Shown one piece after another: positions 1 to 64,000 of a stretch of DNA of 64,000 nt. The notes under the pieces are model-generated. The model saw nothing but the letters and a program-made list of their open reading frames with translations, searched no databases and was not told where the DNA came from. The position numbers were made by a program, and so were the translations under genes. Origin of the DNA: Escherichia coli. Lineage in GTDB: Bacteria; Pseudomonadota; Gammaproteobacteria; Enterobacterales; Enterobacteriaceae. Position 1 is the stretch's first letter. The number at the start of each line of letters is the position of its first letter. Where the stretch lies: assembly GCF_003991155.1 (NCBI RefSeq), contig NZ_CP031293.1; one strand, 5' to 3'.

Positions 1-223
1 TCTGCAGGCTATAAAAATTGTGATGCCTGGCATCGGTGTCCTTTTATTGTCCGGGATTAACGTTGCCCATGATAATACAGTGAATCCTGTTCTGTGGTAA
101 GACGTTGAGTTATTGAATGAGAACCTCAGCCTGGCTGATGGTTCCGCCGGCATAAAAAAGAAATTGATTGAGGCGGGTGCTCTTCCCCTTAAGAGGAAGA
201 GCATGTGTGTAAATGGTGTTCAG

Positions 224-1489
224 TCACCTTTTCAGTGGATTGTTAACTTTTGCATATTCAAACGGACTGATACCCTTATCTCTGTTTGCATCCAGAAAAT
301 CTGCCCACCATTGCAGCATAAGCCGACGTTCTTCCAGATGTTCTGCTTTATGAATATACGCGGCACGTACTCCGTTGCGCTCCTGATGACTCATCTGACG
401 TTCAACCGCATCTCTTGACCATAAACCGGATTCAATCAATGCACTGCACGCCATCGCCCGGAATCCATGGCCACAGACTTCCTTGGTTGTGTCATACCCC
501 ATCACTCTGAGGGCCTTATTTACGGTATTTTCACTGATTGGTTTACGCGGGTCATGTGCTCCCGTAAAGATCAGACCATTTTCACCAGCCCATGTCTGAA
601 GTTCTGTCAGTATGGCTACAGCCTGTTTGCTGAGTGGCACAAGATGTGGTGTTCGCATCTTGGAGCCCCGGTGTGAGAATTTTACCCCTGGCAGAGGTTT
701 GCGTTCGGCTGGAATAGTCCACATGGCATTGTCAATATCAATTTCAGACCAGCGGGCGTATCTGAGTTCACTGGAACGAATAAAAACCAGTAAATTCAGC
801 ATAACGGCAAGCCGGGTGACAGGCTGACCTTTATAACTGTTAATACGCGACAGAAGTTCAGGCAGACGTGAAAGATCAAGAGCGGGGCGATGCTGGCGTT
901 TTACCGTAGTCAATGCGCCAGCCATATCCAGAGCAGGATTATATCTGATGATGCCAGACTGTACGGCATAACGCATTACGGCAGATATTCTTTGCTGCAG
1001 ACGACTGGCGATTTCATAAATTTGTTTAGCTTCTGCAGCACGAACAGGGATAAGCAGATCCGGGGTATTGAGTGTTGTGATATCCCGGTTGCCGATAAAG
1101 GGGAAAACGTGTGTTTCGAGGCTTTTGAGTACTTTATCGCTGTGTGATTGTGCCCATTGTTTATTACTGGCATGCCAGCGTCGTGCAATATGTTCAAAAG
1201 AGAGCTGTAAATCAGGGACTACTTTTTTAGCTCTTTTCTGTTCGCAAGGGTCAATCCCCTCCGAAATCAGTTTTCGGGCCTCATCCCGTTTTGTACGAGC
1301 TTCGGAGAGAGAAACTTCTGGATACACACCAAGTGCCAGAGTCTTCTCCTTACCCAGAATACGATAACGGAGACGCCAGTAACGGGAACCATTAGGATGT
1401 ACCAGCAGGAACATGCCAGCCCCGTCAGTGAGTTTATAAGCCTTGTCAGTGGGCTTTGCAGCCCGGATTTTTGCGTCAGTCAGTGCCAT
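224..1489 (-). CDS. int: P4-type tyrosine integrase at the edge of a pheV-associated genomic island
   Basis: 421-aa ORF; N-terminus 'MALTDAKIRAAKPTDKAYKLTDGAGMFLLVHPNGSRYWRLRY' is typical of P4-family integrases; C-terminal catalytic region with 'HGFRAMA' and 'RAAYIH' (His-x-x-Arg, Tyr); lies directly 3' of tRNA-Phe. Confidence 0.9.
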   Translation of the reverse strand: MALTDAKIRAAKPTDKAYKLTDGAGMFLLVHPNGSRYWRLRYRILGKEKTLALGVYPEVSLSEARTKRDEARKLISEGIDPCEQKRAKKVVPDLQLSFEHIARRWHASNKQWAQSHSDKVLKSLETHVFPFIGNRDITTLNTPDLLIPVRAAEAKQIYEIASRLQQRISAVMRYAVQSGIIRYNPALDMAGALTTVKRQHRPALDLSRLPELLSRINSYKGQPVTRLAVMLNLLVFIRSSELRYARWSEIDIDNAMWTIPAERKPLPGVKFSHRGSKMRTPHLVPLSKQAVAILTELQTWAGENGLIFTGAHDPRKPISENTVNKALRVMGYDTTKEVCGHGFRAMACSALIESGLWSRDAVERQMSHQERNGVRAAYIHKAEHLEERRLMLQWWADFLDANRDKGISPFEYAKVNNPLKR

Positions 1490-1645
1490 AGTTCAGCCTT
1501 CTGAATGCGTTAAAGAGGGTACAAATTCTGTCGAACTGGGGTATACCCGCAATTATACCCACACAATGGGGTTGATGTGGGGGGAATCTGGTTGAGTTCG
1601 GTAGAATTGATTTGTAGGCAGAACGCTTAAATCGTGGTGTTCTGA

Positions 1646-1678
1646 AACGAAAAACGGACCTCCGTGGAGGTCCGTTTA
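1646..1678 (-). terminator. Intrinsic terminator downstream of tRNA-Phe
   Basis: Inverted repeat 'acggacct...aggtccgt' with an A-run on the plus strand (U-run on the minus strand), just 3' of the tRNA. Confidence 0.55.
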
Positions 1679-1686
1679 TATGAATT

Positions 1687-1762
1687 TGGTGCCCGGACTC
1701 GGAATCGAACCAAGGACACGGGGATTTTCAATCCCCTGCTCTACCGACTGAGCTATCCGGGC
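1687..1762 (-). tRNA. pheV: tRNA-Phe
   Basis: Reverse complement reads GCCCGGATAGCTCAGTCGGTAGAGCAGGGGATTGAAAATCCCCGTGTCCTTGGTTCGATTCCGAGTCCGGGCACCA, 76 nt with GAA anticodon and encoded CCA. Confidence 0.95.
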
Positions 1763-1867: not shown

Positions 1868-2575
1868 TCAGGCAAACCAGGCGGTCCAGGCGGCGGAAAG
1901 CGGCATTGCCAGAAGGAGTGCTGGAAGCATGTTGACCACCGGGAACATTTTAATGCCACAGATGCGTAATCCGGTTGCCAGCAGCAATAAACCGCCTACG
2001 GCGCTGAAGTCTGCCATCATCGACGGTGTGGTCAGCGGTAATATCAGCGCGGCAGCCCACGCCAGTGTTAACTGGATGATCAGTAATGGAATGCTAATCA
2101 CCGACACCGCAATACCCAGCGAGCAGGCGAAGATCATCGCCGTAAAGAAATCAAGAAATGACTTGGCGATTAAAATACTCGGATCGCCGGTCATCCCTTC
2201 GTTCATCGCCCCGAAGATTCCGGTGCCGCTGGCGCAAAACAGGACAATAATCGCGACAAAATTCTGAATAAAAGATTCATGCGCTGGCTTCTTACGCGAG
2301 TGGTGAAACAGATTATGCGCTTTGGCGACCACTGTATTGACGCCTTTTTCCAGCAGACAAATTTCGCCGATTAATGCTCCGAGTAAGGTTGCTAAAACCA
2401 TCGCCGGAAGGTTGGCGCATTTCACCACCAGTAAAATACCAATCCCCAGCGATGCCAGACCAAAAATTGATGTCATGGAGACGCGGATACGTTCCGGTAA
2501 GCGTTGGCTAAGGAGTGCGCCGAAAACGCCACCCAGTAAGACTGCACTTGCGTTGATAAAAGGGCCGATGACCAC
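1868..2575 (-). CDS. yqgA: DUF554 inner-membrane protein YqgA
   Basis: 235-aa polytopic membrane ORF between tRNA-Phe and speC, the position of yqgA in K-12. Confidence 0.85.
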
Positions 2576-2982: not shown

Positions 2983-5109
2983 ATGAATATTGCCGCCAGT
3001 AGTGAACTGGTATCCCGACTTTCTACTCATCGCCGCGTGGTGGCGTTGGGAGATACTGATTTTACGGACGTCGCGGCAGTCGTCATTACCGCTGCGGATA
3101 GTCGCAGTGGCATTCTTGCGTTGCTTAAGCGCACCGGTTTTCATCTACCGGTGTTTTTGTATTCCGAACATACTGTTGAATTACCTGCGGGCGTTACGGC
3201 GGTAATCAACGGCAACGAGCAGCAGTGGCTGGAGCTGGAATCCGCAGCCTGTCAGTATGAAGAGAATTTGCTGCCACCGTTTTATGACACGCTGACGCAG
3301 TACGTTGAGATGGGTAATAGCACCTTTGCTTGCCCTGGACATCAACATGGTGCGTTCTTTAAAAAGCATCCTGCCGGACGCCATTTTTACGATTTCTTTG
3401 GCGAGAACATCTTTCGCGCCGATATGTGTAACGCTGACGTAAAATTGGGCGATCTGCTTATTCATGAAGGATCGGCGAAAGATGCGCAGAAATTTGCAGC
3501 CAAAGTCTTTCATGCCGATAAAACCTATTTTGTGCTGAACGGCACATCGGCAGCGAATAAAGTGGTGACGAATGCGCTGTTAACGCGTGGCGATCTGGTG
3601 CTCTTCGACCGTAACAACCATAAGTCGAATCATCACGGCGCGTTGATTCAGGCGGGGGCGACGCCGGTCTATCTGGAAGCTTCACGTAACCCGTTTGGTT
3701 TCATTGGCGGTATTGATGCGCACTGTTTTAATGAAGAGTATCTGCGCCAGCAAATTCGCGACGTTGCGCCAGAAAAAGCCGACCTGCCGCGCCCGTTTCG
3801 CCTGGCGATTATTCAGCTGGGAACCTATGACGGCACTGTCTATAACGCCCGTCAGGTGATCGATACCGTTGGGCATCTGTGTGATTACATTCTGTTTGAT
3901 TCCGCGTGGGTCGGTTACGAACAGTTTATCCCGATGATGGCGGATAGCTCGCCGCTGCTGTTAGAACTTAACGAAAACGATCCGGGGATCTTTGTGACCC
4001 AGTCGGTGCACAAACAGCAGGCGGGATTCTCACAGACGTCGCAGATCCATAAAAAAGATAACCATATCCGTGGACAGGCGCGTTTTTGCCCGCATAAGCG
4101 TTTGAATAATGCCTTTATGCTCCATGCTTCTACCAGCCCGTTCTATCCGCTGTTCGCCGCCCTGGACGTTAACGCCAAAATTCATGAAGGGGAGAGTGGG
4201 CGTCGGCTGTGGGCTGAGTGCGTTGAGTTGGGTATTGAGTCGCGCAAGGCTATTCTTGCGCGCTGTAAGCTGTTCCGCCCGTTTATCCCGCCTGTTGTTG
4301 ATGGCAAATTGTGGCAGGATTATCCGACGTCAGTGTTAGCCAGCGACCGCCGTTTTTTCAGTTTTGAGCCGGGGGCGAAGTGGCACGGCTTTGAAGGATA
4401 TGCCGCGGATCAGTATTTTGTTGATCCGTGCAAGCTGTTACTCACCACGCCGGGTATCGATGCCGAAACCGGCGAATATAGCGATTTTGGCGTTCCAGCG
4501 ACGATTCTGGCGCACTATCTGCGTGAGAACGGCATTGTGCCGGAGAAGTGCGATCTCAACTCCATTCTGTTCTTATTAACTCCGGCGGAAAGCCACGAGA
4601 AGCTGGCACAACTGGTGGCGATGCTGGTGCAGTTTGAACAGCATATTGAGGATGATTCGCCGCTGGCTGAGGTGTTGCCGAGCGTTTATAACAAATATCC
4701 GGTGCGCTATCGCGACTACACCCTGCGCCAGTTGTGTCAGGAGATGCACGATTTGTATGTCAGTTTCGACGTCAAAGACCTACAAAAAGCGATGTTCCGC
4801 CAGCAGAGTTTCCCGTCAGTGGTGATGAATCCCCAGGATGCGCATAGCGCTTATATTCGCGGTGAAGTGGAGTTGGTGCGGATTCGTGATGCCGAAGGGC
4901 GAATTGCGGCAGAAGGGGCGTTGCCTTATCCACCTGGCGTGCTTTGCGTGGTACCCGGGGAAGTCTGGGGTGGGGCGGTTCAACGTTATTTCCTTGCGCT
5001 GGAAGAAGGCGTGAATTTGTTGCCGGGATTTTCGCCGGAGTTGCAAGGTGTCTATAGCGAAACCGATGCGAATGGCATGAAACGGTTGTACGGTTATGTG
5101 TTGAAGTAA
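2983..5109 (+). CDS. speC: Ornithine decarboxylase, constitutive
   Basis: 708-aa ORF; full-length match to the Orn/Lys/Arg decarboxylase (fold I PLP) family, ending '...GMKRLYGYVLK'. Confidence 0.93.
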   Translation: MNIAASSELVSRLSTHRRVVALGDTDFTDVAAVVITAADSRSGILALLKRTGFHLPVFLYSEHTVELPAGVTAVINGNEQQWLELESAACQYEENLLPPFYDTLTQYVEMGNSTFACPGHQHGAFFKKHPAGRHFYDFFGENIFRADMCNADVKLGDLLIHEGSAKDAQKFAAKVFHADKTYFVLNGTSAANKVVTNALLTRGDLVLFDRNNHKSNHHGALIQAGATPVYLEASRNPFGFIGGIDAHCFNEEYLRQQIRDVAPEKADLPRPFRLAIIQLGTYDGTVYNARQVIDTVGHLCDYILFDSAWVGYEQFIPMMADSSPLLLELNENDPGIFVTQSVHKQQAGFSQTSQIHKKDNHIRGQARFCPHKRLNNAFMLHASTSPFYPLFAALDVNAKIHEGESGRRLWAECVELGIESRKAILARCKLFRPFIPPVVDGKLWQDYPTSVLASDRRFFSFEPGAKWHGFEGYAADQYFVDPCKLLLTTPGIDAETGEYSDFGVPATILAHYLRENGIVPEKCDLNSILFLLTPAESHEKLAQLVAMLVQFEQHIEDDSPLAEVLPSVYNKYPVRYRDYTLRQLCQEMHDLYVSFDVKDLQKAMFRQQSFPSVVMNPQDAHSAYIRGEVELVRIRDAEGRIAAEGALPYPPGVLCVVPGEVWGGAVQRYFLALEEGVNLLPGFSPELQGVYSETDANGMKRLYGYVLK

Positions 5110-33297: not shown

Positions 33298-33357
<60 letters not shown>

Positions 33358-33386
33358 GCCAGACACAGCGCCGTCAGGCGCTGTTG

Positions 33387-34606
<1,220 letters not shown>

Positions 34607-50328: not shown

Positions 50329-51219
50329 ATGGACATTTTTATTTCGAAAAAGATGCGCAATTTCATTTTATTAGCGCAAACCAATAATATTGCCCGGGCG
50401 GCAGAAAAAATCCATATGACGGCTTCGCGATTTGGCAAAAGCATTGCCGCGCTGGAAGAACAAATTGGCTATACGCTATTTACCCGCAAAGATAATAATA
50501 TCAGCCTCAATAAAGCCGGACAGGAACTGTATCAAAAACTGTTCCCGGTTTATCAACGACTTTCTGCGATTGATAATGAAATCCATAACTCAGGACGTCG
50601 TTCACGAGAAATTGTGATAGGCATAGATAATACTTATCCGACCATTATTTTTGATCAGTTGATTAGTCTCGGAGATAAGTACGAAGGCGTGACCGCCCAG
50701 CCAGTTGAGTTCAGCGAAAATGGCGTTATCGATAATCTTTTTGACCGTCAGTTAGATTTTAATATCTCCCCACAGCATGTATCTGCACGAGTTCAGGAAC
50801 TGGAAAACCTGACTATCAGTGAACTACCGCCGCTGCGATTGGGCTTTCTCGTTTCTCGCCGTTATGAAGAGCGACAAGAGCTGCTTCAGGAGCTGCCCTG
50901 GCTACAAATGCGCTTTCAGAATCGGGCCAATTTCGAAGCAATGATTGATGCGAATATGCGTCCTTGTGGGATCAATCCCACCATTATTTATCGTCCCTAC
51001 AGTTTTATGGCCAAAATCAGCGCCGTGGAGCGGGAACATTTTCTGACGGTGATCCCGCATTTTGCCTGGCGACTGGTGAATCCGGCAACGCTGAAATATT
51101 TTGATGCGCTGCACAGACCGATGTATATGCAGGAATATCTTTATTCAATCAGAAATCATCGTTATACCGCCACGATGCTTCAGCATATTGCTGAAGATCG
51201 TGACGGGACAAACCATTAA
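50329..51219 (+). CDS. ygfI: LysR-family transcriptional regulator
   Basis: 296 aa; N-terminal wHTH '[32 protein letters not shown]'. Confidence 0.8.
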
Positions 51220-52310
51220 CCCAGCATCGATCCGGTTGCAATTAAATTACGGTGTAAGTCGAAGACGTGGCTAAGATCGTGGTGAATATGTCCGCCGGAC
51301 GCATTTTCCAGATAGCGATGCAGATAATCCCGACACATAGGATGTGCACAATGATCAATGGTGGTGCGGATAACGTTGTTATACGGATCCTGTGCGCCAA
51401 ATCCACTGACCGCTTCGCTCCATAAATAACGTGCCGCACGCAACATGGCGGCGTTCATAAACAGATCCATGCCAATGCCGAAGAAAAACGACAGGCGAGG
51501 GACGAAGCCATCAATTTTCAGCCCGGCGGAGATTGCTGCTTTGATGTACTCAATCCTATCGGCGAGCGTAAATGCTACCTGCTGCACGCAGTTGGCACCC
51601 GCTTCACCCATGTGGTAACTGCTGATACTGATGGTATTAAATCGCGGCATGTTGCCGGAACACCAGGCGATGATGTCTGCGATAATACGCATTGACGGTT
51701 TTGGCGGGTAAATATAGGTATTGCGGCAGAGGTACTCTTTGAGGATATCGTTCTGAATGGTGCCGGTCAGTTTATCGGATGTAACACCTTGCTCTTCTGC
51801 GGCGACGATATAAAACGCCAGTACTGGTAGCACTGCGCCATTCATGGTCATAGAAACCGACATTTTATCCAGCGGGATCTGGTCGAACAGGACTTTCATA
51901 TCTTCCACGGTGTCGATAGCGACGCCCGCTTTGCCGACGTCGCCCGCCACGCGTGGGTTATCGGAGTCGTAGCCTCGGTGGGCGGCAAGGTCAAACGCAA
52001 CGGAAAGACCTTTTTGCCCGGCGGCCAGGTTACGGCGATAAAAAGCGTTGGACTCTTTTGCTGTCGAGAAACCAGCATACTGACGGATGGTCCACGGTTG
52101 GGTGGTATACATAGTGGCACGCGGGCCACGAACGTAGGGTGGCAAACCAGGAAGAGTACCCGTCACCTCCAGATTATCGAGATCGGCTTCGGTATACAGC
52201 GGCTTGATAGCGATCCCTTCCGCGGTTTGCTGAACCAGCGAGTCGACAGTTTTCTCCCGACGGCTCAATTCATTGTTGGCAAGCTGTTGCCACACCAGCA
52301 CGTTAGACAT
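51216..52310 (-). pseudogene. scpA: Methylmalonyl-CoA mutase (ScpA/Sbm) 5' fragment fused to a short non-mutase tail; remnant of a deleted scpA-argK-scpB-scpC operon
   Basis: From '[44 protein letters not shown]...' through '...[11 protein letters not shown]' the ORF follows the MCM N-terminal barrel; it then switches to '...[46 protein letters not shown]' and stops 3 bp inside the convergent ygfI stop. Only about 320 of roughly 714 mutase codons are present, and no argK/scpB/scpC ORFs exist. Confidence 0.75.
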
Positions 52311-52512
52311 TATTTGCTCCGTAAAACGCAATCAAAGTGAGGGTATTTGCGCTTACGGTGAGCTTTTTACGTGGGTTTGTCGCCAGCAAAAAAATGCATT
52401 CAGACGTCGTTTTTTGCCGCCTGAGATTTGTCTATTTTGTAATGTGATTCAAGGAATACAAAAAGAAGTGAGGATAACGCCTGATATGTGCTATCAGGCA
52501 TTATTTGATGGA

Positions 52513-53406
52513 TTAATCCTGACGAAGAACTTTGTGACCATAATCGAGCAACGCATCAGTGACTTTACGCATCATGCGGCTTTCAGGAGCAAAGCGGTGC
52601 CAGTAGAGCATCCGGCGTTGGAATAGCCCTGGCGTTAAGTCAATCAGTTCGCCGCTGGCCAGCTCTTTCTCGATTTGCAGGTGCGGGATCATACAGCAGG
52701 TGGTGCCCTGACGAGCAAGTTGCACGAACGCTTCCGAAGAATTAACGATATGGCAGGGTACGCTGCCAGGAGGCAGATCGAAATTTTGCTGCAAAAAGGC
52801 CTGGTGCATATCGTCAAGATGGTCAAACGCGACCACTGGCGCTTTCAGTAATGCCGAACGCGTTACGCCGTTAGGGAAATATTTTTCGGCAAAAGGTTTT
52901 GAGCTGACGAACAGATAGTCGAGCGCACCGAGTTTATCGACAAGACAACTCGGCAGCGCCTGATGTTGAATACTCACTGCGCCGACCACTTCGCCGCGAC
53001 GCAGACGTTCCTGAGTGCGGGTTTCATCTTCTACCTGCAAGTTGAGGCGGATGGGCGAATCAGCCAACACAGGAGCCAGTGCCGGAAGCAACCACGTCGC
53101 CAGACTGTCGGCGTTGACCGCCAGTGAAAGCAGCAGCGGAGTCGAACCGGTTTGTTCATCGCCCAGCCACTCTTCTTCCAGCAGCTCCACCTGGCGTAGT
53201 AGCGCCAACAGTTTTTGCCCTTGTTCCGTCGGGCGCGGCGGTACGGTACGCACTAACAACGGCTGCCCGAACATATTTTCCAGTTGCTTAATGCGCTGTG
53301 AGACGGCTGATTGTGTAATGCACAGCTTTTGTGCCGCGCGCTCAAATCCTCGTTCACGTATCACCGCATCCAGTGCCTGTAATGTTCTGTAGTCCGGGCG
53401 TTTCAT
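52513..53406 (-). CDS. argP: LysR-family regulator ArgP (IciA)
   Basis: 297 aa from '[43 protein letters not shown]'. Confidence 0.95.
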
Positions 53407-53498
53407 TGCTGTTGTCTGCTCCTGGTAAATGCTTTTTCCTGCACTATGACACAATTTTGTGTCGGGTTGCATATACCGAAGCCGTTGGTGGGTAACAT

Positions 53499-53777
53499 TT
53501 GTATCAGTGGTTAACGCGCAGCTTAAAAGATCAGGGATTTGCGCTAATGCATTTCGCTCAGCGAGTTCGCGCCCTGGTTGTGTTGAATGGCGTGGCGTTA
53601 TTGCCTCAGTTTGCCTGTAAACAGGGGCTTGCGAACGGGGAACTGGTGCGCCTGTTTGCACCGTGGAGCGGCATACCCAGACCGTTGTATGCTTTACTTG
53701 CGGGGCGAAAGGGGATGCCCGCCATTGCGCGATATTTTATGGATGAGTTAACCACGCGGCTTGCCAACGGGGTCTGA
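53499..53777 (+). pseudogene. yqfE: LysR-family regulator C-terminal fragment (yqfE-like pseudogene)
   Basis: 92-codon ORF resembling only the C-terminal effector domain of a LysR regulator; no HTH; K-12 carries a pseudogene at this position. Confidence 0.4.
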
Positions 53778-53832
53778 ATCGCTTTTTTTGTATATAATGC
53801 GTGTGAAATTTCATACCACAGGCGAAACGATC

Positions 53833-54492
53833 ATGACGCAGGATGAATTGAAAAAAGCAGTAGGATGGGCGGCACTTCAGTATGTTCAGCTCGGCACCAT
53901 TGTTGGTGTAGGTACAGGTTCCACCGCCGCACACTTTATTGACGCACTCGGTACAATGAAAGGCCAGATTGAAGGGGCCGTTTCCAGTTCAGATGCTTCC
54001 ACTGAAAAACTGAAAAGCCTCGGCATTCACGTTTTTGATCTCAACGAAGTCGACAGCCTTGGCATCTACGTTGATGGCGCAGATGAAATCAACGGCCACA
54101 TGCAAATGATCAAAGGCGGCGGCGCGGCGCTGACCCGTGAAAAAATCATTGCTTCGGTTGCGGAAAAATTTATCTGTATTGCAGACGCTTCCAAGCAGGT
54201 TGATATTCTGGGCAAATTCCCGCTGCCAGTAGAAGTTATCCCGATGGCACGTAGTGCAGTGGCGCGCCAGCTGGTGAAACTGGGCGGTCGTCCGGAATAC
54301 CGTCAGGGCGTAGTGACCGATAACGGCAACGTGATCCTCGACGTCCACGGCATGGAAATCCTTGACCCGATAGCGATGGAAAACGCCATAAATGCGATTC
54401 CTGGCGTGGTGACTGTTGGTTTGTTTGCTAACCGTGGCGCGGACGTTGCGCTGATTGGCACACCTGACGGTGTCAAAACTATTGTGAAATGA
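53833..54492 (+). CDS. rpiA: Ribose-5-phosphate isomerase A
   Basis: 219 aa from '[39 protein letters not shown]'; a 'tatataat' -10-like element lies about 35 bp upstream. Confidence 0.96.
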
Positions 54493-54747
54493 TCTGACGG
54501 GGGAACCTCCCCCGTTAAAAAAATTCTCTTCATTAAATTTGGTGACATGTGTCACGTTTTTACCTGGCAATTGTCGATTGCTCTAAATAAATCCTCTAAA
54601 CCAGCATATTCATCCAAGAAATACTTTTGCGTGATATTTCCTCAACATAGCGACGCAAACGTTCATATTGCCGCAATATTATTTTTTGATATGTTGAAAG
54701 GCGGATGCAAATCCGCACACAACATTTCAAAAGACAGGATTGGGTAA

Positions 54748-55980
54748 ATGGCAAAGGTATCGCTGGAGAAAGACAAGATTAAGTTTCTGCTGGTAGAAGG
54801 CGTGCACCAAAAGGCGCTGGAAAGCCTTCGTGCAGCTGGTTACACCAACATCGAATTTCACAAAGGCGCGCTGGATGATGAACAATTAAAAGAATCCATC
54901 CGCGATGCCCACTTCATCGGCCTGCGATCCCGTACCCATCTGACTGAAGACGTGATCAACGCCGCAGAAAAACTGGTCGCTATTGGCTGTTTCTGTATAG
55001 GAACAAACCAGGTTGATCTGGATGCGGCGGCAAAGCGCGGGATCCCGGTATTTAACGCACCGTTCTCAAATACGCGCTCTGTTGCGGAGCTGGTGATTGG
55101 CGAACTGCTGCTGCTATTGCGCGGCGTGCCGGAAGCCAATGCTAAAGCGCATCGTGGCGTGTGGAACAAACTGGCGGCGGGTTCTTTTGAAGCGCGCGGC
55201 AAAAAGCTGGGTATCATCGGCTACGGTCATATTGGTACGCAATTGGGCATTCTGGCTGAATCGCTGGGAATGTATGTTTACTTTTATGATATTGAAAACA
55301 AACTGCCGCTGGGCAACGCCACTCAGGTACAGCATCTTTCTGACCTGCTGAATATGAGCGATGTGGTGAGTCTGCATGTACCAGAGAATCCGTCCACCAA
55401 AAATATGATGGGCGCGAAAGAGATTTCGCTAATGAAACCCGGCTCGCTGCTGATTAATGCTTCGCGCGGTACTGTGGTGGATATTCCAGCGCTGTGTGAC
55501 GCGCTGGCGAGCAAACATCTGGCAGGGGCGGCAATCGACGTATTCCCGACGGAACCGGCGACCAATAGCGATCCATTTACCTCTCCGCTGTGTGAATTCG
55601 ACAATGTCCTTCTGACGCCACACATTGGTGGTTCGACTCAGGAAGCGCAGGAGAATATCGGTCTGGAAGTTGCGGGTAAATTGATCAAGTATTCTGATAA
55701 TGGTTCAACGCTCTCTGCGGTGAACTTCCCGGAAGTCTCGCTGCCACTGCACGGTGGTCGTCGTCTGATGCACATCCACGAAAACCGTCCGGGTGTGCTG
55801 ACTGCGCTCAACAAAATTTTTGCCGAGCAGGGCGTCAACATCGCCGCGCAATATCTGCAAACTTCCGCCCAGATGGGTTATGTAGTTATTGATATTGAAG
55901 CCGACGAAGACGTTGCCGAAAAAGCGCTGCAGGCAATGAAAGCTATTCCGGGTACCATTCGCGCCCGTCTGCTGTACTAA
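54748..55980 (+). CDS. serA: D-3-phosphoglycerate dehydrogenase
   Basis: 410 aa 'MAKVSLEKDKIKFLLVEGVHQKALESLRAAGYTNIEFHKGALDDEQL'. Confidence 0.97.
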   Translation: MAKVSLEKDKIKFLLVEGVHQKALESLRAAGYTNIEFHKGALDDEQLKESIRDAHFIGLRSRTHLTEDVINAAEKLVAIGCFCIGTNQVDLDAAAKRGIPVFNAPFSNTRSVAELVIGELLLLLRGVPEANAKAHRGVWNKLAAGSFEARGKKLGIIGYGHIGTQLGILAESLGMYVYFYDIENKLPLGNATQVQHLSDLLNMSDVVSLHVPENPSTKNMMGAKEISLMKPGSLLINASRGTVVDIPALCDALASKHLAGAAIDVFPTEPATNSDPFTSPLCEFDNVLLTPHIGGSTQEAQENIGLEVAGKLIKYSDNGSTLSAVNFPEVSLPLHGGRRLMHIHENRPGVLTALNKIFAEQGVNIAAQYLQTSAQMGYVVIDIEADEDVAEKALQAMKAIPGTIRARLLY

Positions 55981-56000
55981 ATCCCCTTCTCTGAAAATCA

Positions 56001-56032
56001 ACGGGCAGGTCACTGACTTGCCCGTTTTTTTA
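56001..56032 (+). terminator. Intrinsic terminator after serA
   Basis: 'acgggcaggtcactgacttgcccgttttttta'. Confidence 0.65.
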
Positions 56033-56174
56033 TCCCTTCTCCACACCGTTGCCGCATTGCGCATTCTACTTTGCGAGTCTGCTCCAGAAAATAAATCAAA
56101 GTCAGATCAATGCGTTGTGTTTATTTAATGGGGATTTACGATGGCAGGGCAGCATGGGGCTGTAACGGTAAAGC

Positions 56175-56320
56175 CCTCACCGAAGCGAGGGCTTGAAGGA
56201 GAAGGGTTATGATGCGACTTGTCATCATACTGATTGTACTGTTACTCATAAGTTTCCCAGCTTATTAACAGTCAGTCTCAGGGGAGGAGTCATCCTCCCT
56301 TACCCTTACTCACTAAATTA
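56175..56320 (-). ncRNA. sibC: SibC antisense RNA (antitoxin of ibsC); approximate boundaries
   Basis: Inferred from the ibsC toxin ORF on the opposite strand and the flanking hairpins 'aagccctcaccgaagcgagggctt' and 'gggaggagtcatcctccc'; ends not determined. Confidence 0.4.
56209..56268 (+). CDS. ibsC: Type I toxin IbsC (19-aa hydrophobic peptide)
   Basis: Manual translation after SD 'aggaga': MMRLVIILIVLLLISFPAY*; lies in the serA-fau intergenic region where the K-12 ibsC/sibC locus sits. Confidence 0.75.
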   Translation: MMRLVIILIVLLLISFPAY

Positions 56321-56368
56321 GGTTAAAGAATCAACGATGTCAATCAGGGCGATGCAGGTGTGTCGCCC

Positions 56369-56917
56369 TCACCACTCCCAGACTTTCGACGGTGTAACCA
56401 CCGCAGGAAGAGGGATATCCCACTCTTCAACGGGGAGTTTTTCCACCAACTGACAATCATGCGCATAACCCACCGGTTGCATTTTATAGTGCTGCCAGTT
56501 TTGTAAGGTCCGATCATAAAAACCACCGCCCATTCCCAGGCGCTGACCGTACTCATCAAAGGCGACCAGCGGTGTGATCAACACGTCTAATCGGGAAAGG
56601 GGTAGCACGTCACGCACATCCAGTTTTGGCTCATGGATCTTCAACCTGTTCATCACCAGTTCGCTTTGCGGATGGTAGTTCAGGAACAGCAAATTACCGG
56701 CACTAAAGGGATGCAAAACTGGAAGATATACGCGCTTACCGGCGCGCCAGAGTTGTTCTATGAGTGGCTGGGTGTCGAGTTCGCCATCAAAAGAGAGGAA
56801 TACAGCGACCATATGTGCCATCACCACCGGAGGATAAGTCATCATCCGGGTAGCGGCTTGTTGACCCATTTCCTGCTGTTGTTCCGGCGTTAACGCACGA
56901 CGACGTTGCCGAATCAT
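56369..56917 (-). CDS. fau: 5-formyltetrahydrofolate cyclo-ligase
   Basis: 182 aa from 'MIRQRRRALTPEQQQEMGQQAATRMMTYPP'; directly downstream of ssrS on the same strand. Confidence 0.9.
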   Translation of the reverse strand: MIRQRRRALTPEQQQEMGQQAATRMMTYPPVVMAHMVAVFLSFDGELDTQPLIEQLWRAGKRVYLPVLHPFSAGNLLFLNYHPQSELVMNRLKIHEPKLDVRDVLPLSRLDVLITPLVAFDEYGQRLGMGGGFYDRTLQNWQHYKMQPVGYAHDCQLVEKLPVEEWDIPLPAVVTPSKVWEW

Positions 56918-56989
56918 TTTGCGGATTTCTTGTCGGGATAATGTCAGTGGAAGTTCTGGTAGTTGCGTCATGGCTGGTGCCAGATAAGA

Positions 56990-57175
56990 AGGGAATCTCC
57001 GAGATGCCGCCGCAGGCTGTAACCCTTGAACCCTTGGTTCAAGGTGAATGTGTCGTCGCAGTTTTAAGGCTTCTCGGACGGACCGAGCATGCTCACCAAC
57101 CGCGGAGCGCCACATTCTTGTGGTATGAAATATCGGCTCAGGGGACTGGCCCGCTTGCGAACATCTCAGAGAAAT
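56990..57175 (-). ncRNA. ssrS: 6S RNA
   Basis: Minus strand reads ATTTCTCTGAGATGTTCGCAAGCGGGCCAGTCCCCTGAGCCGATATTTCATACCACAAGAATGTGGCGCTCCGCGG...GGCGGCATCTCGGAGATTCCCT, the canonical 6S RNA. Confidence 0.93.
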
Positions 57176-57228
57176 TTTGTCTTCACGGTTACTCTACCAC
57201 AGTAAACCGAAAAGTGTCATTCAAAGTT

Positions 57229-57612
<384 letters not shown>

Positions 57613-57713
57613 CTATAGCTACCCTGATGAGAAGAGACAAGCCCTTTTCTGGTCCACCAGGGCCCAAAGTGGTAGCATATCATGAATATTCCTCCCTTTG
57701 ACGACGAATGCTT

Positions 57714-58292
57714 ATGTCTATACAGAACGAAATGCCTGGTTACAACGAAATGAACCAGTATCTGAACCAACAAGGGACGGGTCTGACCCCTGCTGAGATG
57801 CATGGTTTAATCAGTGGGATGATATGTGGCGGTAACGATGACAGCTCATGGCTGCCGCTACTTCACGACCTGACGAACGAAGGCATGGCTTTCGGTCATG
57901 AGCTGGCACAGGCACTGCGCAAAATGCACTCTGCCACCAGCGATGCCCTGCAGGATGACGGCTTCCTTTTTCAGCTTTATCTGCCTGATGGCGATGATGT
58001 CAGCGTTTTCGATCGGGCTGATGCGCTGGCTGGTTGGGTCAATCACTTCCTGCTTGGTATTGGCGTTACGCAACCGAAGCTGGACAAAGTGACCGGCGAA
58101 ACCGGTGAAGCCATCGACGATCTGCGTAACATCGCGCAGTTGGGTTACGACGAAGACGAAGATCAGGAAGAGCTTGAAATGTCGCTTGAAGAGATCATCG
58201 AGTACGTCCGTGTTGCCGCGCTGTTATGCCACGACACCTTTACTCATCCGCAACCGACCGCGCCAGAAGTACAAAAACCGACTCTACACTAA
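57714..58292 (+). CDS. ygfB: UPF0149 protein YgfB
   Basis: From '[40 protein letters not shown]'. Confidence 0.88.
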
Positions 58293-58317
58293 AAACAAAA
58301 AACGTAAGGAGAGTGTT

Positions 58318-59643
58318 ATGAGTGATATATCCCGGCAAGAATTTCAGCGTCGCCGTCAGGCCCTGGTAGAGCAAATGCAACCCGGCAGCGCCGCGCTGAT
58401 TTTTGCTGCACCAGAAGTAACACGTAGCGCCGACAGCGAATACCCCTATCGTCAGAACAGTGACTTCTGGTACTTCACCGGCTTTAACGAACCGGAAGCG
58501 GTGCTGGTGCTGATTAAAAGCGATGACACTCATAACCACAGCGTTTTGTTTAACCGCGTTCGCGACCTGACGGCAGAGATCTGGTTTGGTCGTCGCTTAG
58601 GCCAGGATGCCGCGCCAGAGAAACTGGGCGTTGACCGCGCACTGGCATTCAGCGAAATCAATCAGCAACTTTATCAACTACTTAATGGTCTGGATGTGGT
58701 TTACCACGCTCAGGGCGAATATGCATATGCTGATGAAATCGTGAACAGCGCGCTTGAGAAACTGCGTAAAGGTTCGCGGCAAAATCTCACCGCACCGGCA
58801 ACGATGATCGACTGGCGTCCTGTTGTTCATGAAATGCGCCTGTTCAAATCACCAGAAGAGATTGCCGTACTTCGCCGCGCGGGTGAAATCACCGCACTGG
58901 CGCATACACGGGCGATGGAAAAATGCCGTCCGGGGATGTTCGAGTACCATCTGGAAGGCGAAATTCACCACGAATTTAACCGCCACGGTGCGCGTTACCC
59001 TTCCTATAACACCATTGTTGGCAGCGGTGAAAACGGCTGCATTTTGCACTACACCGAAAACGAGTGTGAACTGCGTGACGGTGACCTGGTGTTGATTGAC
59101 GCGGGTTGTGAATACAAAGGTTACGCTGGCGACATTACCCGCACCTTCCCGGTCAACGGCAAATTCACTCAGGCTCAGCGTGAAATCTATGACATTGTGC
59201 TGGAGTCTCTTGAAACCAGCCTGCGCCTGTATCGTCCGGGAACTTCCATTCAGGAAGTCACTGGTGAAGTGGTGCGCATCATGGTTAGCGGTCTGGTAAA
59301 ACTCGGCATCCTGAAAGGTGAAGTTGATGAACTGATCGCTCAGAACGCCCATCGTCCTTTCTTTATGCATGGCCTTAGCCACTGGTTAGGACTGGATGTT
59401 CATGACGTTGGTGTTTATGGTCAGGATCGCTCGCGTATTCTGGAACCGGGTATGGTTCTGACCGTAGAACCAGGGCTGTATATTGCGCCGGATGCAGAAG
59501 TGCCAGAACAGTATCGCGGTATCGGCATTCGTATTGAAGACGATATTGTGATTACCGAAACCGGTAATGAAAACCTCACCGCCAGCGTGGTGAAAAAGCC
59601 GGAAGAAATCGAAGCGTTGATGGCAGCTGCGAGAAAGCAATGA
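58318..59643 (+). CDS. pepP: Xaa-Pro aminopeptidase (aminopeptidase P II)
   Basis: 441 aa from 'MSDISRQEFQRRRQALVEQMQPGSAALIFAAPEV'; M24 metal ligands 'HGLSHWLGLDVHD'. Confidence 0.95.
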   Translation: MSDISRQEFQRRRQALVEQMQPGSAALIFAAPEVTRSADSEYPYRQNSDFWYFTGFNEPEAVLVLIKSDDTHNHSVLFNRVRDLTAEIWFGRRLGQDAAPEKLGVDRALAFSEINQQLYQLLNGLDVVYHAQGEYAYADEIVNSALEKLRKGSRQNLTAPATMIDWRPVVHEMRLFKSPEEIAVLRRAGEITALAHTRAMEKCRPGMFEYHLEGEIHHEFNRHGARYPSYNTIVGSGENGCILHYTENECELRDGDLVLIDAGCEYKGYAGDITRTFPVNGKFTQAQREIYDIVLESLETSLRLYRPGTSIQEVTGEVVRIMVSGLVKLGILKGEVDELIAQNAHRPFFMHGLSHWLGLDVHDVGVYGQDRSRILEPGMVLTVEPGLYIAPDAEVPEQYRGIGIRIEDDIVITETGNENLTASVVKKPEEIEALMAAARKQ

Positions 59644-60818
59644 GCGTAATCATCGTCGGTGGCGGCATGGCGGGCGCGACGCTGGCGCTGGCTATTTCCC
59701 GGTTAAGTCACGGGGCGCTGCCAGTACATTTGATTGAAGCGACCGCGCCAGAGTCACATGCGCATCCGGGCTTTGATGGACGAGCTATTGCGCTGGCGGC
59801 GGGTACCTGTCAGCAACTGGCGCGCATCGGCGTCTGGCAATCTCTGGCTGATTGCGCAACTGCCATCACCACAGTGCATGTCAGCGATCGTGGTCACGCT
59901 GGATTTGTCACCCTCGCCGCAGAAGATTACCAACTGGCGGCGCTGGGGCAGGTTGTCGAATTGCACAATGTCGGGCAACGGCTGTTTGCATTGCTGCGCA
60001 AAGCACCTGGCGTAACGCTGCATTGCCCTGATCGCGTGGCTAACGTTGCCCGTACTCAGAGCCTCGTTGAAGTGACGCTGGAGAGTGGCGAGACGCTGAC
60101 GGGCCGCGTGCTGGTAGCCGCTGATGGCACCCATTCAGCGTTAGCCACCGTGTGCGGCGTTGACTGGCAGCAGGAGCCTTACGAACAACTGGCTGTGATT
60201 GCCAACGTTGCGACTTCCGTTGCGCATGAAGGGCGCGCTTTTGAACGCTTTACACAATATGGCCCGCTGGCGATGTTGCCGATGTCTGACGGACGCTGTT
60301 CGCTGGTCTGGTGTCATCCACTGGAACGGCGCGAAGAGGTGCTGTCGTGGAATGACGAGAAGTTTTGCCGTGAACTCCAGTCGGCCTTTGGCTGGCGACT
60401 TGGGAAAATTACTCACGCCGGTAAGCGCAGTGCTTATCCGCTGGCGTTAACCCGCGCCGCCAGACCTATTACCCATCGTACCGTGCTGGTGGGCAATGCG
60501 GCGCAAACTCTGCACCCCATCGCCGGGCAAGGATTTAACCTCGGTATGCGTGATGTGATGAGCCTTGCAGAAACCCTGACTCAGGCGCAGGAGCGCGGAG
60601 AAGACATGGGTGATTACGGCGTATTGTGCCGTTATCAGCAGCGTCGACAGAGCGATCGCGAAGCAACCATCGGCGTCACGGACAGCCTTGTACATCTTTT
60701 TGCCAACCGTTGGACGCCGCTGGTTGTCGGGCGCAACATCGGGCTGATGACGATGGAATTATTTACCCCGGCACGCGATGTGCTGGCGCAGCGCACTCTT
60801 GGTTGGGTGGCGCGTTGA
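59640..60818 (+). CDS. ubiH: 2-octaprenyl-6-methoxyphenol hydroxylase
   Basis: 392 aa; FAD motif 'MSVIIVGGGMAGATLALAI'; overlaps the pepP stop. Confidence 0.93.
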   Translation: MSVIIVGGGMAGATLALAISRLSHGALPVHLIEATAPESHAHPGFDGRAIALAAGTCQQLARIGVWQSLADCATAITTVHVSDRGHAGFVTLAAEDYQLAALGQVVELHNVGQRLFALLRKAPGVTLHCPDRVANVARTQSLVEVTLESGETLTGRVLVAADGTHSALATVCGVDWQQEPYEQLAVIANVATSVAHEGRAFERFTQYGPLAMLPMSDGRCSLVWCHPLERREEVLSWNDEKFCRELQSAFGWRLGKITHAGKRSAYPLALTRAARPITHRTVLVGNAAQTLHPIAGQGFNLGMRDVMSLAETLTQAQERGEDMGDYGVLCRYQQRRQSDREATIGVTDSLVHLFANRWTPLVVGRNIGLMTMELFTPARDVLAQRTLGWVAR

Positions 60819-60840
60819 AGGCGGTTTTAAGGAATAAACA

Positions 60841-62043
60841 ATGCAAAGTGTTGATGTAGCCATTGTTGGCGGCGGCATGGTCGGGCTGGCGGTTGCCTGC
60901 GGATTACAGGGTAGCGGCTTACGCGTTGCCGTACTGGAGCAGCGCGTACCGGAACCTCTGGCGGCGGATGCACCACCACAACTGCGCGTTTCGGCTATCA
61001 ATGCCGCCAGCGAAAAATTACTCACCCGTCTTGGCGTCTGGCAGGACATTCTCTCTCGTAGGGCCTGTTGCTATCACGGTATGGAAGTGTGGGATAAAGA
61101 CAGTTTTGGTCACATCTCGTTTGACGATCAAAGCATGGGCTATAGCCATCTTGGGCATATCGTTGAAAACTCAGTGATTCACTACGCGCTGTGGAACAAA
61201 GCGCAGCAGTCGTCAGATATCACTCTGTTGGCCCCCGCAGAATTACAGCAGGTCGCCTGGGGAGAAAATGAAACCTTCCTGACGTTGAAAGATGGCAGCA
61301 TGTTAACGGCGCGTCTGGTGATTGGCGCAGACGGCGCTAATTCCTGGTTGCGCAACAAAGCCGATATTCCGCTGACTTTCTGGGATTATCAGCATCACGC
61401 GCTGGTGGCGACCATTCGCACGGAAGAACCGCATGATGCGGTGGCGCGGCAGGTTTTCCATGGCGAAGGCATTCTGGCCTTTTTACCGCTTAGCGATCCG
61501 TATCTTTGCTCGATTGTCTGGTCACTGTCGCCAGAGGAAGCGCTGCGGATGCAGCAGGCTAGTGAAGACGAATTTAATCGCGCGTTAAATATCGCTTTTG
61601 ATAATCGCCTGGGCTTATGCAAGGTTGAAAGTGAGCGCCTGGTGTTCCCGCTAACGGGGCGTTATGCGCGCCAGTTTGCCGCGCACCGTCTGGCGCTGGT
61701 GGGCGACGCCGCGCATACCATTCACCCGTTGGCGGGGCAGGGGGTAAATCTCGGCTTTATGGATGCTGCAGAGCTGATTGCTGAACTGAAACGGTTGCAT
61801 CGTCAGGGTAAAGACATCGGGCAGTACATTTACCTGCGTCGCTATGAGCGTAGCCGCAAGCACAGCGCGGCGCTGATGCTGGCTGGTATGCAGGGATTCC
61901 GCGATCTGTTTTCCGGGGCTAATCCGGCGAAAAAATTGCTGCGTGATATTGGTCTGAAACTGGCTGATACGCTTCCTGGCGTTAAGCCACAACTTATTCG
62001 TCAGGCAATGGGATTAAACGATTTGCCTGAATGGCTGCGTTAA
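60841..62043 (+). CDS. ubiI: 2-octaprenylphenol hydroxylase (VisC)
   Basis: 400 aa; FAD motif 'VDVAIVGGGMVGLAVACGL'. Confidence 0.93.
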   Translation: MQSVDVAIVGGGMVGLAVACGLQGSGLRVAVLEQRVPEPLAADAPPQLRVSAINAASEKLLTRLGVWQDILSRRACCYHGMEVWDKDSFGHISFDDQSMGYSHLGHIVENSVIHYALWNKAQQSSDITLLAPAELQQVAWGENETFLTLKDGSMLTARLVIGADGANSWLRNKADIPLTFWDYQHHALVATIRTEEPHDAVARQVFHGEGILAFLPLSDPYLCSIVWSLSPEEALRMQQASEDEFNRALNIAFDNRLGLCKVESERLVFPLTGRYARQFAAHRLALVGDAAHTIHPLAGQGVNLGFMDAAELIAELKRLHRQGKDIGQYIYLRRYERSRKHSAALMLAGMQGFRDLFSGANPAKKLLRDIGLKLADTLPGVKPQLIRQAMGLNDLPEWLR

Positions 62044-62086
62044 ATATTTCTCTTCTGCTGTTTATTTGATACCCATCACACTTTCA

Positions 62087-62116
62087 TCTCCCGGTTTTTT
62101 CGCCGGGAGATTTTCC
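62087..62116 (+). terminator. Intrinsic terminator after ubiI
   Basis: 'tctcccggttttttcgccgggagattttcc'. Confidence 0.6.
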
Positions 62117-62490
62117 TCATTTGAAATAAACTAATTTCACCTGCGATTTCGCATTATATTTTCTAATGCCACGAATTTTTGATTTAGTGTTTTTTGACAT
62201 TTTTTTAGTTCTTAATGTTGTCTTATTCAAATTAACTTTCTCATCTATTTATCTTTATATAGAGATTTGTTCATTTTTTGGTTTTTTATTCTGTTACGAT
62301 TTTGGCGTTTTTTAACCATAAGCTAATGTGATGATCAATTTTACCTTATGGTTAACAGTCTGTTTCGGTGGTAAGTTCAGGCAAAAGAGAACGATTGCGT
62401 TGGGGACCGGGAGTGGCTCCGATGCTGGGTTTCGTGGTGATAATTTCGCCATGGAAAAGTTGTCAGCCCCGCTTATTCAATGAGGACAAG

Positions 62491-63585
62491 ATGGCACAAC
62501 AGACTCCTTTGTACGAACAACACACGCTTTGCGGCGCTCGCATGGTGGATTTCCACGGCTGGATGATGCCGCTGCATTACGGTTCGCAAATCGACGAACA
62601 TCATGCGGTACGTACCGATGCCGGAATGTTTGATGTGTCACATATGACCATCGTCGATCTTCGCGGCAGCCGCACCCGGGAGTTTTTGCGTTATCTGCTG
62701 GCGAACGATGTGGCGAAACTCACCAAAAGCGGCAAAGCCCTTTACTCGGGGATGTTGAATGCCTCTGGCGGTGTGATAGATGACCTCATCGTCTACTACT
62801 TTACTGAAGATTTCTTCCGCCTCGTTGTTAACTCCGCCACCCGCGAAAAAGACCTCTCCTGGATTACCCAACACGCTGAACCTTTCGGCATCGAAATTAC
62901 CGTTCGTGATGACCTTTCCATGATTGCCGTGCAAGGGCCGAATGCGCAGGCAAAAGCTGCCACACTGTTTAATGACGCTCAGCGTCATGCGGTGGAAGGG
63001 ATGAAACCGTTCTTTGGCGTGCAGGCGGGCGATCTGTTTATTGCCACCACCGGTTACACCGGTGAAGCGGGCTACGAAATTGCGCTGCCCAATGAAAAAG
63101 CGGCCGATTTCTGGCGCGCGCTGGTGGAAGCGGGCGTTAAGCCATGCGGTCTGGGCGCGCGTGACACGCTGCGTCTGGAAGCGGGCATGAATCTTTATGG
63201 TCAGGAGATGGACGAAACCATCTCTCCGTTAGCCGCCAACATGGGCTGGACTATCGCCTGGGAACCGGCAGATCGTGACTTCATCGGTCGTGAAGCCCTG
63301 GAAGTGCAGCGTGAACATGGCACAGAAAAACTGGTTGGTCTGGTGATGACTGAAAAAGGCGTGCTGCGTAATGAACTGCCGGTACGTTTTACTGATGCGC
63401 AGGGCAACCAGCATGAAGGCATTATCACCAGCGGTACTTTCTCCCCGACGCTGGGTTACAGCATTGCGCTGGCGCGTGTGCCGGAAGGTATTGGTGAAAC
63501 GGCGATTGTGCAAATTCGCAACCGTGAAATGCCGGTTAAAGTGACGAAACCTGTTTTTGTGCGTAACGGTAAAGCCGTCGCGTGA
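62491..63585 (+). CDS. gcvT: Glycine cleavage system T protein (aminomethyltransferase)
   Basis: 364 aa from '[41 protein letters not shown]'; preceded by a roughly 450-bp AT-rich control region. Confidence 0.96.
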
Positions 63586-63608
63586 TTTACTTTTTTGGAG
63601 ATTGATTG

Positions 63609-63998
63609 ATGAGCAACGTACCAGCAGAACTGAAATACAGCAAAGAACACGAATGGCTGCGTAAAGAAGCCGACGGCACTTACACCGTTGGTATCACCGA
63701 ACATGCCCAGGAGCTGTTAGGCGATATGGTGTTTGTTGACCTGCCGGAAGTGGGCGCAACGGTTAGCGCGGGCGATGACTGCGCGGTTGCCGAATCGGTA
63801 AAAGCGGCGTCAGACATTTATGCGCCAGTAAGCGGTGAAATCGTGGCGGTAAACGACGCACTGAGCGATTCCCCGGAACTGGTGAACAGCGAACCGTATG
63901 CAGGCGGCTGGATCTTTAAAATCAAAGCCAGCGATGAAAGCGAACTGGAATCACTGCTGGATGCGACCGCATACGAAGCATTGTTAGAAGACGAGTAA
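63609..63998 (+). CDS. gcvH: Glycine cleavage system H protein (lipoyl carrier)
   Basis: 129 aa '[49 protein letters not shown]'; lipoyl-Lys motif 'ESVKAASD'. Confidence 0.96.
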
Positions 63999-64000
63999 CG

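Follow-up and report, generated by a model that had tools for sequence, protein, structure and literature searches.

At one end of the Escherichia coli DNA analysed here, a stretch of 64 kb referred to below as the window, a tRNA gene, a phage-type integrase gene and the short segment that separates them form a compact arrangement, which is bordered on one side by genes of the core chromosome. Specifically, the following features are recognised, given with their coordinates in the window and their strand:

1..223, strand not assigned: island DNA past the stop codon of the integrase gene, intergenic, the next cargo gene lying just beyond the window
224..1489, minus strand: intP4, coding for the intact P4-type tyrosine integrase (Int) of GI-pheV, 421 aa, identified by its open reading frame, Pfam domains and comparison with P4 Int
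1490..1686, minus strand: island-side attL arm (P' arm), consisting of the int upstream region with its candidate arm-type sites, recognised by the conserved spacer and a cluster of GGGTAYA motifs
1512..1525, plus strand: inverted candidate arm-type site, AAAGAGGGTACAAA (also given as AGAGGGTACAAA), upstream of the int start codon by 23-36 nt
1540..1563, minus strand: two 12-mers in tandem, TGTGGGTATAAT and TGCGGGTATACC, at a distance of 124-147 nt from the core, candidate arm-type sites for the binding of Int
1652..1677, minus strand: island-supplied pheV terminator hairpin, whose 11-bp stem includes 6 G-C pairs and precedes a run of T
1687..1709, minus strand: attL core, formed by the 3'-terminal 23 nt of tRNA-Phe, TTCGATTCCGAGTCCGGGCACCA, repeated with a 1-nt deletion in the proxy genome described below
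1687..1762, minus strand: pheV, intact tRNA-Phe(GAA), called by ARAGORN and scoring 68.3 bits with the Rfam tRNA model
1868..2575, minus strand: yqgA, a flanking gene of the core chromosome by which the site is recognised as pheV

The tRNA-Phe(GAA) gene is the sole tRNA found by ARAGORN in the whole 64-kb window, and all of its 76 nt are identical to K-12 pheV. Since its flanks are yqgA and, beyond it, speC (2983..5109), which is the neighbourhood of pheV in K-12, the site is pheV and not pheU, as had been proposed from the sequence in the original prediction. The int reading frame starts with ATG and contains zero internal stops. Its start codon (1489) is separated from the 3' end of the tRNA (1687) by 197 nt, both genes lie on the minus strand, and int is located downstream of pheV and reads away from it; the description of an intact 421-aa integrase about 200 bp from tRNA-Phe and transcribed away from it is therefore accurate. 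The hairpin between pheV and int is graded as a strong terminator. In K-12 MG1655 yghD follows pheV after 148 nt, without an integrase in between, in agreement with what the original prediction said of that strain. Past the int stop codon the window holds just 223 bp, in which the open reading frame listing gives no convincing frame, so the cargo does lie beyond position 1.

The deduced protein has the three-domain architecture of P4-type integrases (Arm-DNA-bind_3/DUF4102). In particular, Pfam recognises an N-terminal arm-binding domain (Arm-DNA-bind_3, PF13356, residues 3-88, 7e-30), a central core-binding domain (Phage_int_M, PF22022, residues 98-192, 2e-27) and a C-terminal catalytic domain (Phage_integrase, PF00589, residues 208-383, 1.5e-17). 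By BLASTP, 226 of 410 positions (55%, E 3e-174) are identical to the integrase of phage P4, and residues R238, H341, R344, H368 and Y378 do not vary when the protein is aligned with P4 Int and with its pheV counterparts from CFT073, 536 and Sakai. The proposed membership of the P4 family is borne out by these domains, by the catalytic residues and by the identity to P4 Int. The structures matched in the PDB (3ju0, 3jtz and 2kkv) are isolated arm- or core-binding domains of CP4-like integrases. Against the more specific model NCBIfam NF007246 (PRK09692) the protein scores 252.7 bits (E 5e-75), below the curated cutoff of 434 bits. Because of this, it is filed under the broad P4 type: it is related to NF007246 at the domain level and is not a member of that model. 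Amino acid identity to the pheV integrases of CFT073, 536, APEC O1, 55989, H10407 and Sakai ranges from 96.7 to 98.1% (97.2% for strain 536). The P4-type tyrosine integrase is intact and probably functional.

As the window has only 223 bp past int, the cargo of the island, its attR and its excisionase were read from proxy genomes, selected by a megablast search of window positions 1..1700 against 5,426 complete E. coli genomes. A single 100% match was obtained, to E. coli FDAARGOS_1284 (NZ_CP070170.1), and only 108 records among the 5,426 genomes reach at least 99% identity over the same segment. The identity with FDAARGOS_1284, hereafter the proxy, extends base for base from position 1 to position 33302 of the window. 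After this point the window carries a 1,277-bp IS621 insertion that is absent in the proxy; past the IS621, there is one mismatch between the two sequences in 16.7 kb, and the final 12.7 kb contain 39 SNPs. FDAARGOS_1284 is a very close relative of the strain from which the window derives, and not the same strain. Window positions 1..223 correspond to 788751..788973 of NZ_CP070170.1 (100% identity), where the next gene, coding for a 347-aa hypothetical protein, ends at 788718. Behind int, the proxy carries an island of 79,677 bp, with a GC content of 49.0% as compared to 51.3% for the core chromosome of the window, a modest deviation. The window, as stated in the original prediction, begins inside an island.

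The distal boundary of this island is marked by the direct repeat of the tRNA 3' end that had been suggested as a check. An exact search for the 3' end of the tRNA (14-30 nt) in the 100 kb upstream in the proxy returned only the tRNA itself, because the distal repeat has a 1-nt deletion. Short-word BLAST detects it through a 17-nt exact match. The attR to which this match belongs, at positions 710737..710759 of NZ_CP070170.1, reads TTCGATTCCGAGTCCGG-CACCA, an imperfect 23/24 direct repeat in which one G is deleted. On its chromosomal side, 71 bp are 95.8% identical to the region downstream of K-12 pheV and include the native pheV terminator. The region from attR to yghD, which is outside the repeats, is occupied in the proxy by a remnant of IS110 and by the group-2 kps capsule locus, whose GC content is 42.3%.

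The segment between int and the tRNA shows the organisation expected of an attachment-site arm. Across six reference GI-pheV islands, conservation of the 197-nt spacer amounts to 95-98.5%. The GGGTAYA motif has 8 matches in the 64-kb window, 4 of which fall within 44 bp of the int-side arm, against about 0.006 expected. The tandem 12-mers at 1540..1563 would be bound by Int. The inverted candidate site at 1512..1525 is invariant in all 7 of the int-tRNA spacers compared, and, by analogy with P4, it is likely to serve in the autoregulation of Int. Moreover, the layout can be compared with that of attP of phage P4 (NC_001609). The int-side pair resembles the annotated P4 arm repeats at 3942-3965, likewise in tandem, at 113-136 nt from the core of P4. 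An inverted arm repeat is found at the start of int in P4 (3915-3926), and an inverted candidate site just upstream of int in the window. On the other side of P4 attP a tandem pair is located 54-77 nt from the core, and the far arm in the proxy is alike, with the tandem pair TGCGGGTACAAA and AGAGGGTACATA at 51-74 nt. The motif itself differs, being GnGGGTAYA in the island and GGGGGCAYA in P4; in strains 536 and 55989 one arm site reads GGGCATA, which bridges the two. The parallel extends to a possible excisionase, as a 68-aa AlpA-family protein encoded inside the proxy island has 36% identity to P4 Vis and matches the Pfam family Phage_AlpA (1e-8). This AlpA/Vis-type protein is a candidate excisionase, which may determine the directionality of recombination.

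These similarities could also be read as those of a P4-like satellite prophage in place of a pathogenicity island: Int shares 55% of its residues with that of P4, the att sites are laid out in the P4 manner, and the element has a homologue of Vis/AlpA. Phage P4 and the island have in common integration at the 3' end of a tRNA, the three Int domains, the catalytic residues and the Vis/AlpA excisionase homologue. The tRNA targeted by P4 is leuX, and that of the island is pheV or pheU. The content of the element argues against a satellite. P4 is an 11.6-kb satellite, whereas the proxy island spans 79.7 kb, with about 80 kb of virulence and fitness cargo, and genes for P4 replication and helper exploitation are unannotated there. 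In particular, its annotation contains no counterpart of the alpha primase of P4 or of sid, psu, delta, cI or epsilon, and what it does contain is fimbriae, contact-dependent inhibition (CDI) and transport genes and IS elements. Judged by this annotation, a satellite prophage is scarcely credible.

The extension upstream and the classification of the cargo that the original prediction called for were carried out in the proxy genomes, and revealed pap-GIII, pgt, cdi, nanXY, Ag43 and a yee module. Starting from int, the proxy island encodes the 347-aa hypothetical protein, a phosphoethanolamine (PEtN) transferase and an Adr/OmpW-like outer membrane protein (OMP), followed by a complete P-fimbrial operon (papIBA...papG-III, papX). 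After pap come an IS66 element and pgtP-pgtCBA, then orphan CdiA-CT toxin fragments, nanXY and a full cdiB-cdiA-cdiI locus, together with genes for a sugar PTS and for fucose and ribose. A zinc-ribbon/inovirus-Gp2/YfjI block contains the 68-aa AlpA-family gene, about 63 kb from int. The distal part carries Ag43 and a CP4-like "yee" module (antirestriction, RadC/JAB and the YeeU/CbtA toxin-antitoxin). Many IS and transposase fragments are scattered across the island; these abundant fragments and the 1-nt deletion in attR could reduce the mobility of the island. NCBIfam and Pfam provide no useful name for the 347-aa neighbour of int, which has weak TPR matches only, nor for three other island proteins. 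No relaxase, oriT or type IV secretion genes are annotated in the 79.7-kb proxy island, which does not qualify as an integrative conjugative or mobilisable element. The features that classically characterise pathogenicity islands are instead all found: a tRNA, direct repeats, int, the pap, cdi and Ag43 genes (in the proxy), absence from K-12 and deviant GC. A role of this cargo in virulence would be in line with its annotation and with the literature.

The one finding that would have overturned the original prediction, namely an integrase remnant with no island behind it, is not what the proxy genomes show. Int is full length and keeps all catalytic residues, and every inspected genome with this allele has tens of kilobases of foreign DNA behind int. 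Such a remnant is accordingly extremely improbable.

It is instead reasonable to ask whether the genome from which the window derives carries the cargo described in the proxies or a smaller, larger or differently composed island. GI-pheV islands vary from 9.7 to 110 kb and intP4 is their sole conserved gene (PMC11537424), window and proxy are not the same strain, and the int-proximal 25 kb of the proxy are covered to at least 80% in only 30 of the 5,426 genomes. A further point in favour of another cargo comes from PEC403. This genome was considered as a second proxy, being the closest match with an IS621 at the same site as the window, and was rejected as uninformative on the present cargo: although it shares this rare insertion, its pheV island is wholly different, with other integrases and IS26/Tn3/integron resistance genes. 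On the other side, window positions 1..1700, inclusive of the 223 bp past int, are 100% identical to the proxy, at a locus where at least 99% identity is reached in 108 records only. The genomes listed with the int-proximal 25 kb are also among the top int-allele matches (at least 99.5% over window 1..1700). In E50, with the island at pheV, and in L3Cip3, with the island at pheU, the int allele is 99.7% identical and the gene order of the proxy is kept for at least 20 kb. In fact, all 3 inspected genomes with an allele of at least 99.7% identity keep this order (hypothetical protein, PEtN transferase, OMP, pap-GIII) over at least 20 kb. Since E50 and L3Cip3 share the cargo and PEC403 differs, the cargo goes with the int allele, and not with the core genome. 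A different island in the window's genome is rather improbable, and this genome very probably carries essentially the island of the proxy.

Islands of this kind are common at pheV. An integrase beside pheV-yqgA is found in 3,054 of the 5,426 complete genomes (56%), when searched with a query running from the int 5' end through pheV into yqgA at a coverage of at least 80%. This frequency is close to the 52% of 2,383 complete genomes reported for GI-pheV, a class whose definition rests on pheV with intP4 and the conserved flank (Nhu et al. 2024, PMC11537424), and bears out the view of pheV as a hotspot. The pheV tRNA with intP4 adjacent and yqgA on its other side is found in the window itself; the other hallmark of the class, a distal pheV-derived attR followed by K-12-like backbone or by kps, is seen in the proxy genome. 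With PAI I-CFT073, PAI V-536 and EC958_GI-pheV the locus has in common pheV by yqgA, intP4 after the tRNA and the 197-nt spacer, as well as the 23-bp attL core and the imperfect attR TTCGATTCCGAGTCCGG-CACCA of window and proxy, respectively. The same imperfect attR is listed for 16 of 41 reference strains, strain 536 among them (PMC11537424, Table 1). Furthermore, GI-pheV cargo is modular and IS-separated (pap, pgt, flu/Ag43, yee), with kps just outside the repeat, as in the proxy; in the published definition, too, GI-pheV is ended before the kps locus (PMC11537424).

More distant relatives are the she PAI (SHI-1) of Shigella flexneri and the LEE and OI-122 (SpLE3) islands of EPEC and EHEC, which likewise use pheV or pheU sites and closely related integrases; the Int of Sakai SpLE3, for example, is 96.7% identical to that of the window. 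Excision of the she PAI was reportedly found by Sakellaris et al. in 2004 to be carried out by Int and Rox. The cargo of these islands (Pic/ShET1, LEE type III secretion, Efa1/LifA) is entirely unlike that of the proxy, and most islands of the OI-122 type are without a recognisable attR (PMC11537424). Taken together, the data indicate with high confidence that window positions 1..1762 are the tRNA-proximal (attL) end of a GI-pheV/PAI-pheV island of an E. coli of the extraintestinal pathogenic type. Detailed descriptions exist already of this class, of its integrase and att sites and of its distribution in the population, and the window is one more example of it.

The integrase allele adds some detail to this picture. 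The nearest reference allele is that of CFT073 (97.87% nucleotide identity, 27 of 1266 nt or 2.1% differing), and the remaining reference alleles diverge from the window int by 5-6%; this comparison employs one reference per presumed allele, with labels derived from the text of PMC11537424 and not from its tree. Five intP4 alleles are named in that study, with less than 1% divergence within an allele and CFT073 as the intP4.1 type, so that at 2.1% the window int falls outside the within-allele spread of intP4.1. The positions that differ from CFT073 match the 536/55989 or the Sakai alleles in patches, which suggests a mosaic allele, CFT073-like with 536/55989 and Sakai patches. In addition, islands with intP4.1 have a 19-bp attR, whereas the proxy island associated with the window allele has one of 23 bp, and the pap/pgt/OMP cargo of the proxy is tied in PMC11537424 to other alleles (intP4.3-like) and not to intP4.1. 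This pairing of allele, attR and cargo is a detail within a class known as mosaic, and fits the published picture of modular, recombining islands.

A further observation concerns the location of the island. One int allele with one proximal cargo is found at both tRNA-Phe genes, namely at pheV in E50 and at pheU, flanked by dicD/dsbD/cutA, in L3Cip3. As the same allele with the pap-GIII/PEtN-transferase/OMP cargo occurs at both sites, it can be tentatively proposed that int is a recombinant allele and that the island is still moving in nature between the identical pheV and pheU tRNAs, although this appears doubtful at present.

An opposite view is that the island is frozen, with int intact, Int having little present role and change occurring only through IS activity, deletion and homologous recombination. 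Several observations go in this direction: the attR core has a 1-nt deletion, the proxy island carries many IS and transposase fragments, the AlpA-like gene lies about 63 kb from int, and a simple scan upstream of int reveals no sigma-70-like promoter. Moreover, GI-pheV of ST131 is reported to have co-evolved with the core genome, by gain and loss of modules and not by exchange of whole islands (PMC11537424). Other evidence speaks against a frozen island. Purifying selection on Int is evident, as the gene is full length in all 7 strains compared and identity is 96.7-98.1% for the protein and 94-98% for the nucleotide sequence; the arm-type sites and the spacer are conserved as well, and the presence of the same allele and cargo at pheU and pheV suggests site-specific movement. 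In addition, PAI V536, which has the same imperfect attR and an Int 97.2% identical to that of the window, still deletes at a frequency of 1e-5 to 1e-6, a process catalysed by its own P4-like integrase, as stated in PMC3202238; integrase-catalysed deletion is described likewise for PAI I-VI of strain 536 (PMC7286903). A review dealing with cross-talk of the PAI V536 integrase (PMC7545054) was set aside, its wording being garbled. On the whole, an island of this kind with a largely idle integrase seems unlikely, though it deserves consideration.

Under the preferred interpretation of the locus as the attL end of a GI-pheV island, the following mechanism can be envisaged. Site-specific recombination of its attP with the final ~23 nt of pheV would have brought the island in. 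A complete tRNA would have been restored in this way, with a terminator supplied by the island, and a slightly damaged copy of the tRNA end would have remained as attR beside the native terminator, ~80 kb away. In this process, Int would attach through its N-terminal domain to the 12-bp GGGTAYA-type repeats of the two arms, and its core-binding and catalytic domains would cut and rejoin DNA within the 23-bp core, Y378 acting as the nucleophile. Int, the AlpA/Vis-type directionality factor of the island and host bending proteins could then promote low-frequency excision, giving rise to a non-replicating circle. The annotation of the proxy island includes neither transfer nor replication genes, so that to spread further the island would require a helper, or else homologous recombination of the adjoining chromosome. 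We infer the arm-site binding, the role of the recombination directionality factor and the present-day activity from the similarities with P4 and with related islands.

Many of the adhesins, toxins, iron uptake systems and capsule-linked genes by which pathogenic E. coli differ from commensal ones are carried on islands at pheV. The presence of an island edge at this position marks the strain of the window as ExPEC-like. From the point of view of genome annotation, position 1 lies inside the island, and the DNA upstream of it is consequently to be treated as accessory genome. Finally, if the island still moves between tRNA-Phe genes, this would mean that an attR lacking one nucleotide does not block recombination.

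The integrase gene adjoining pheV (positions 224 to 1489 of the window, minus strand) differs from that of CFT073 at 27 positions, which agree with other alleles in patches. Near nt 147-171 the window allele has the 536/55989 state, at nt 510-582 it has the Sakai state, and a few of the differences from CFT073, at nt 375, 804 and 1212, are unique to it. On sequence comparison, the allele appears to be a mosaic. Moreover, its association with pheV is not exclusive. In L3Cip3 (NZ_CP062211.1, stretch L014, 20001 to 21762) the same allele is found at 99.7% at pheU instead of pheV, as shown by the dicD/dsbD/cutA flank. The integrase-proximal cargo is the same there, consisting of a hypothetical protein, a PEtN transferase, an OMP and the pap-GIII operon, with the PEtN transferase gene broken by IS4.

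The island is probably represented by that of FDAARGOS_1284 (NZ_CP070170.1), which serves as proxy genome for the window. About 5 kb from its complete cdiBAI locus, the proxy island carries a row of orphan toxin fragments (L001, 16677 to 19863), which are CdiA C-termini with the VENN motif, and the small genes downstream of them are possible orphan immunity genes.

On the chromosomal side, the following features were located in the window:

33303 to 34579: IS621 (IS110-family) element, 1,277 bp, interrupting the REP sequence that separates tkt from a prohibitin-family gene
33407 to 34387, minus strand: IS621 transposase ORF
51280 to 64000: SNP-dense stretch, genes argP-serA-ssrS-ubiHI-gcvTH
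56193 to 56343: Sib antitoxin RNA, opposite ibsC (Rfam)
56992 to 57175: 6S RNA, ssrS (Rfam)

The proxy genome, though otherwise identical, is without the IS621 element, and an IS at this exact site is present in just seven of the 5,426 complete E. coli genomes searched. The SNP-dense stretch, with 39 SNPs in 12.7 kb relative to the proxy genome as against a single SNP (position 46772) in the preceding 50 kb, looks like a recombination tract. Between L003 49937 and L012 1031 (window ~51214 to 52310) the proxy annotation contains only truncated acetyl-CoA hydrolase and methylmalonyl-CoA mutase gene fragments, which suggests that the scpA-argK-scpBC (sbm) operon has been largely deleted in this lineage. 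The two small RNAs are ordinary core-genome features.

Other insertions are found at pheV. In the proxy genome, further DNA (42.3% GC in the capsule locus) lies between attR, the island's far boundary repeat, and yghD:

L002 3632 to 18540 (NZ_CP070170.1, 695632 to 710540): group-2 kps capsule locus and IS110 remnant

Both fall beyond the direct repeats that bound the island and are therefore the product of an older insertion, distinct from it, at this hotspot. The pheV island of PEC403 (L013, NZ_CM168009.1, 943000 to 992900) is unrelated. It encodes a DUF927 protein and two tyrosine integrases different from that of the window, and ~35 kb of it is taken up by resistance genes associated with IS26, Tn3 and a class-1 integron, namely:

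dfrA14, aph(3')-Ia, tet(A), aac(3)-IIe, erm(B), mph(A)

In PEC403, then, the tRNA gene used by the island of the window is occupied by a multidrug-resistance island on the chromosome.
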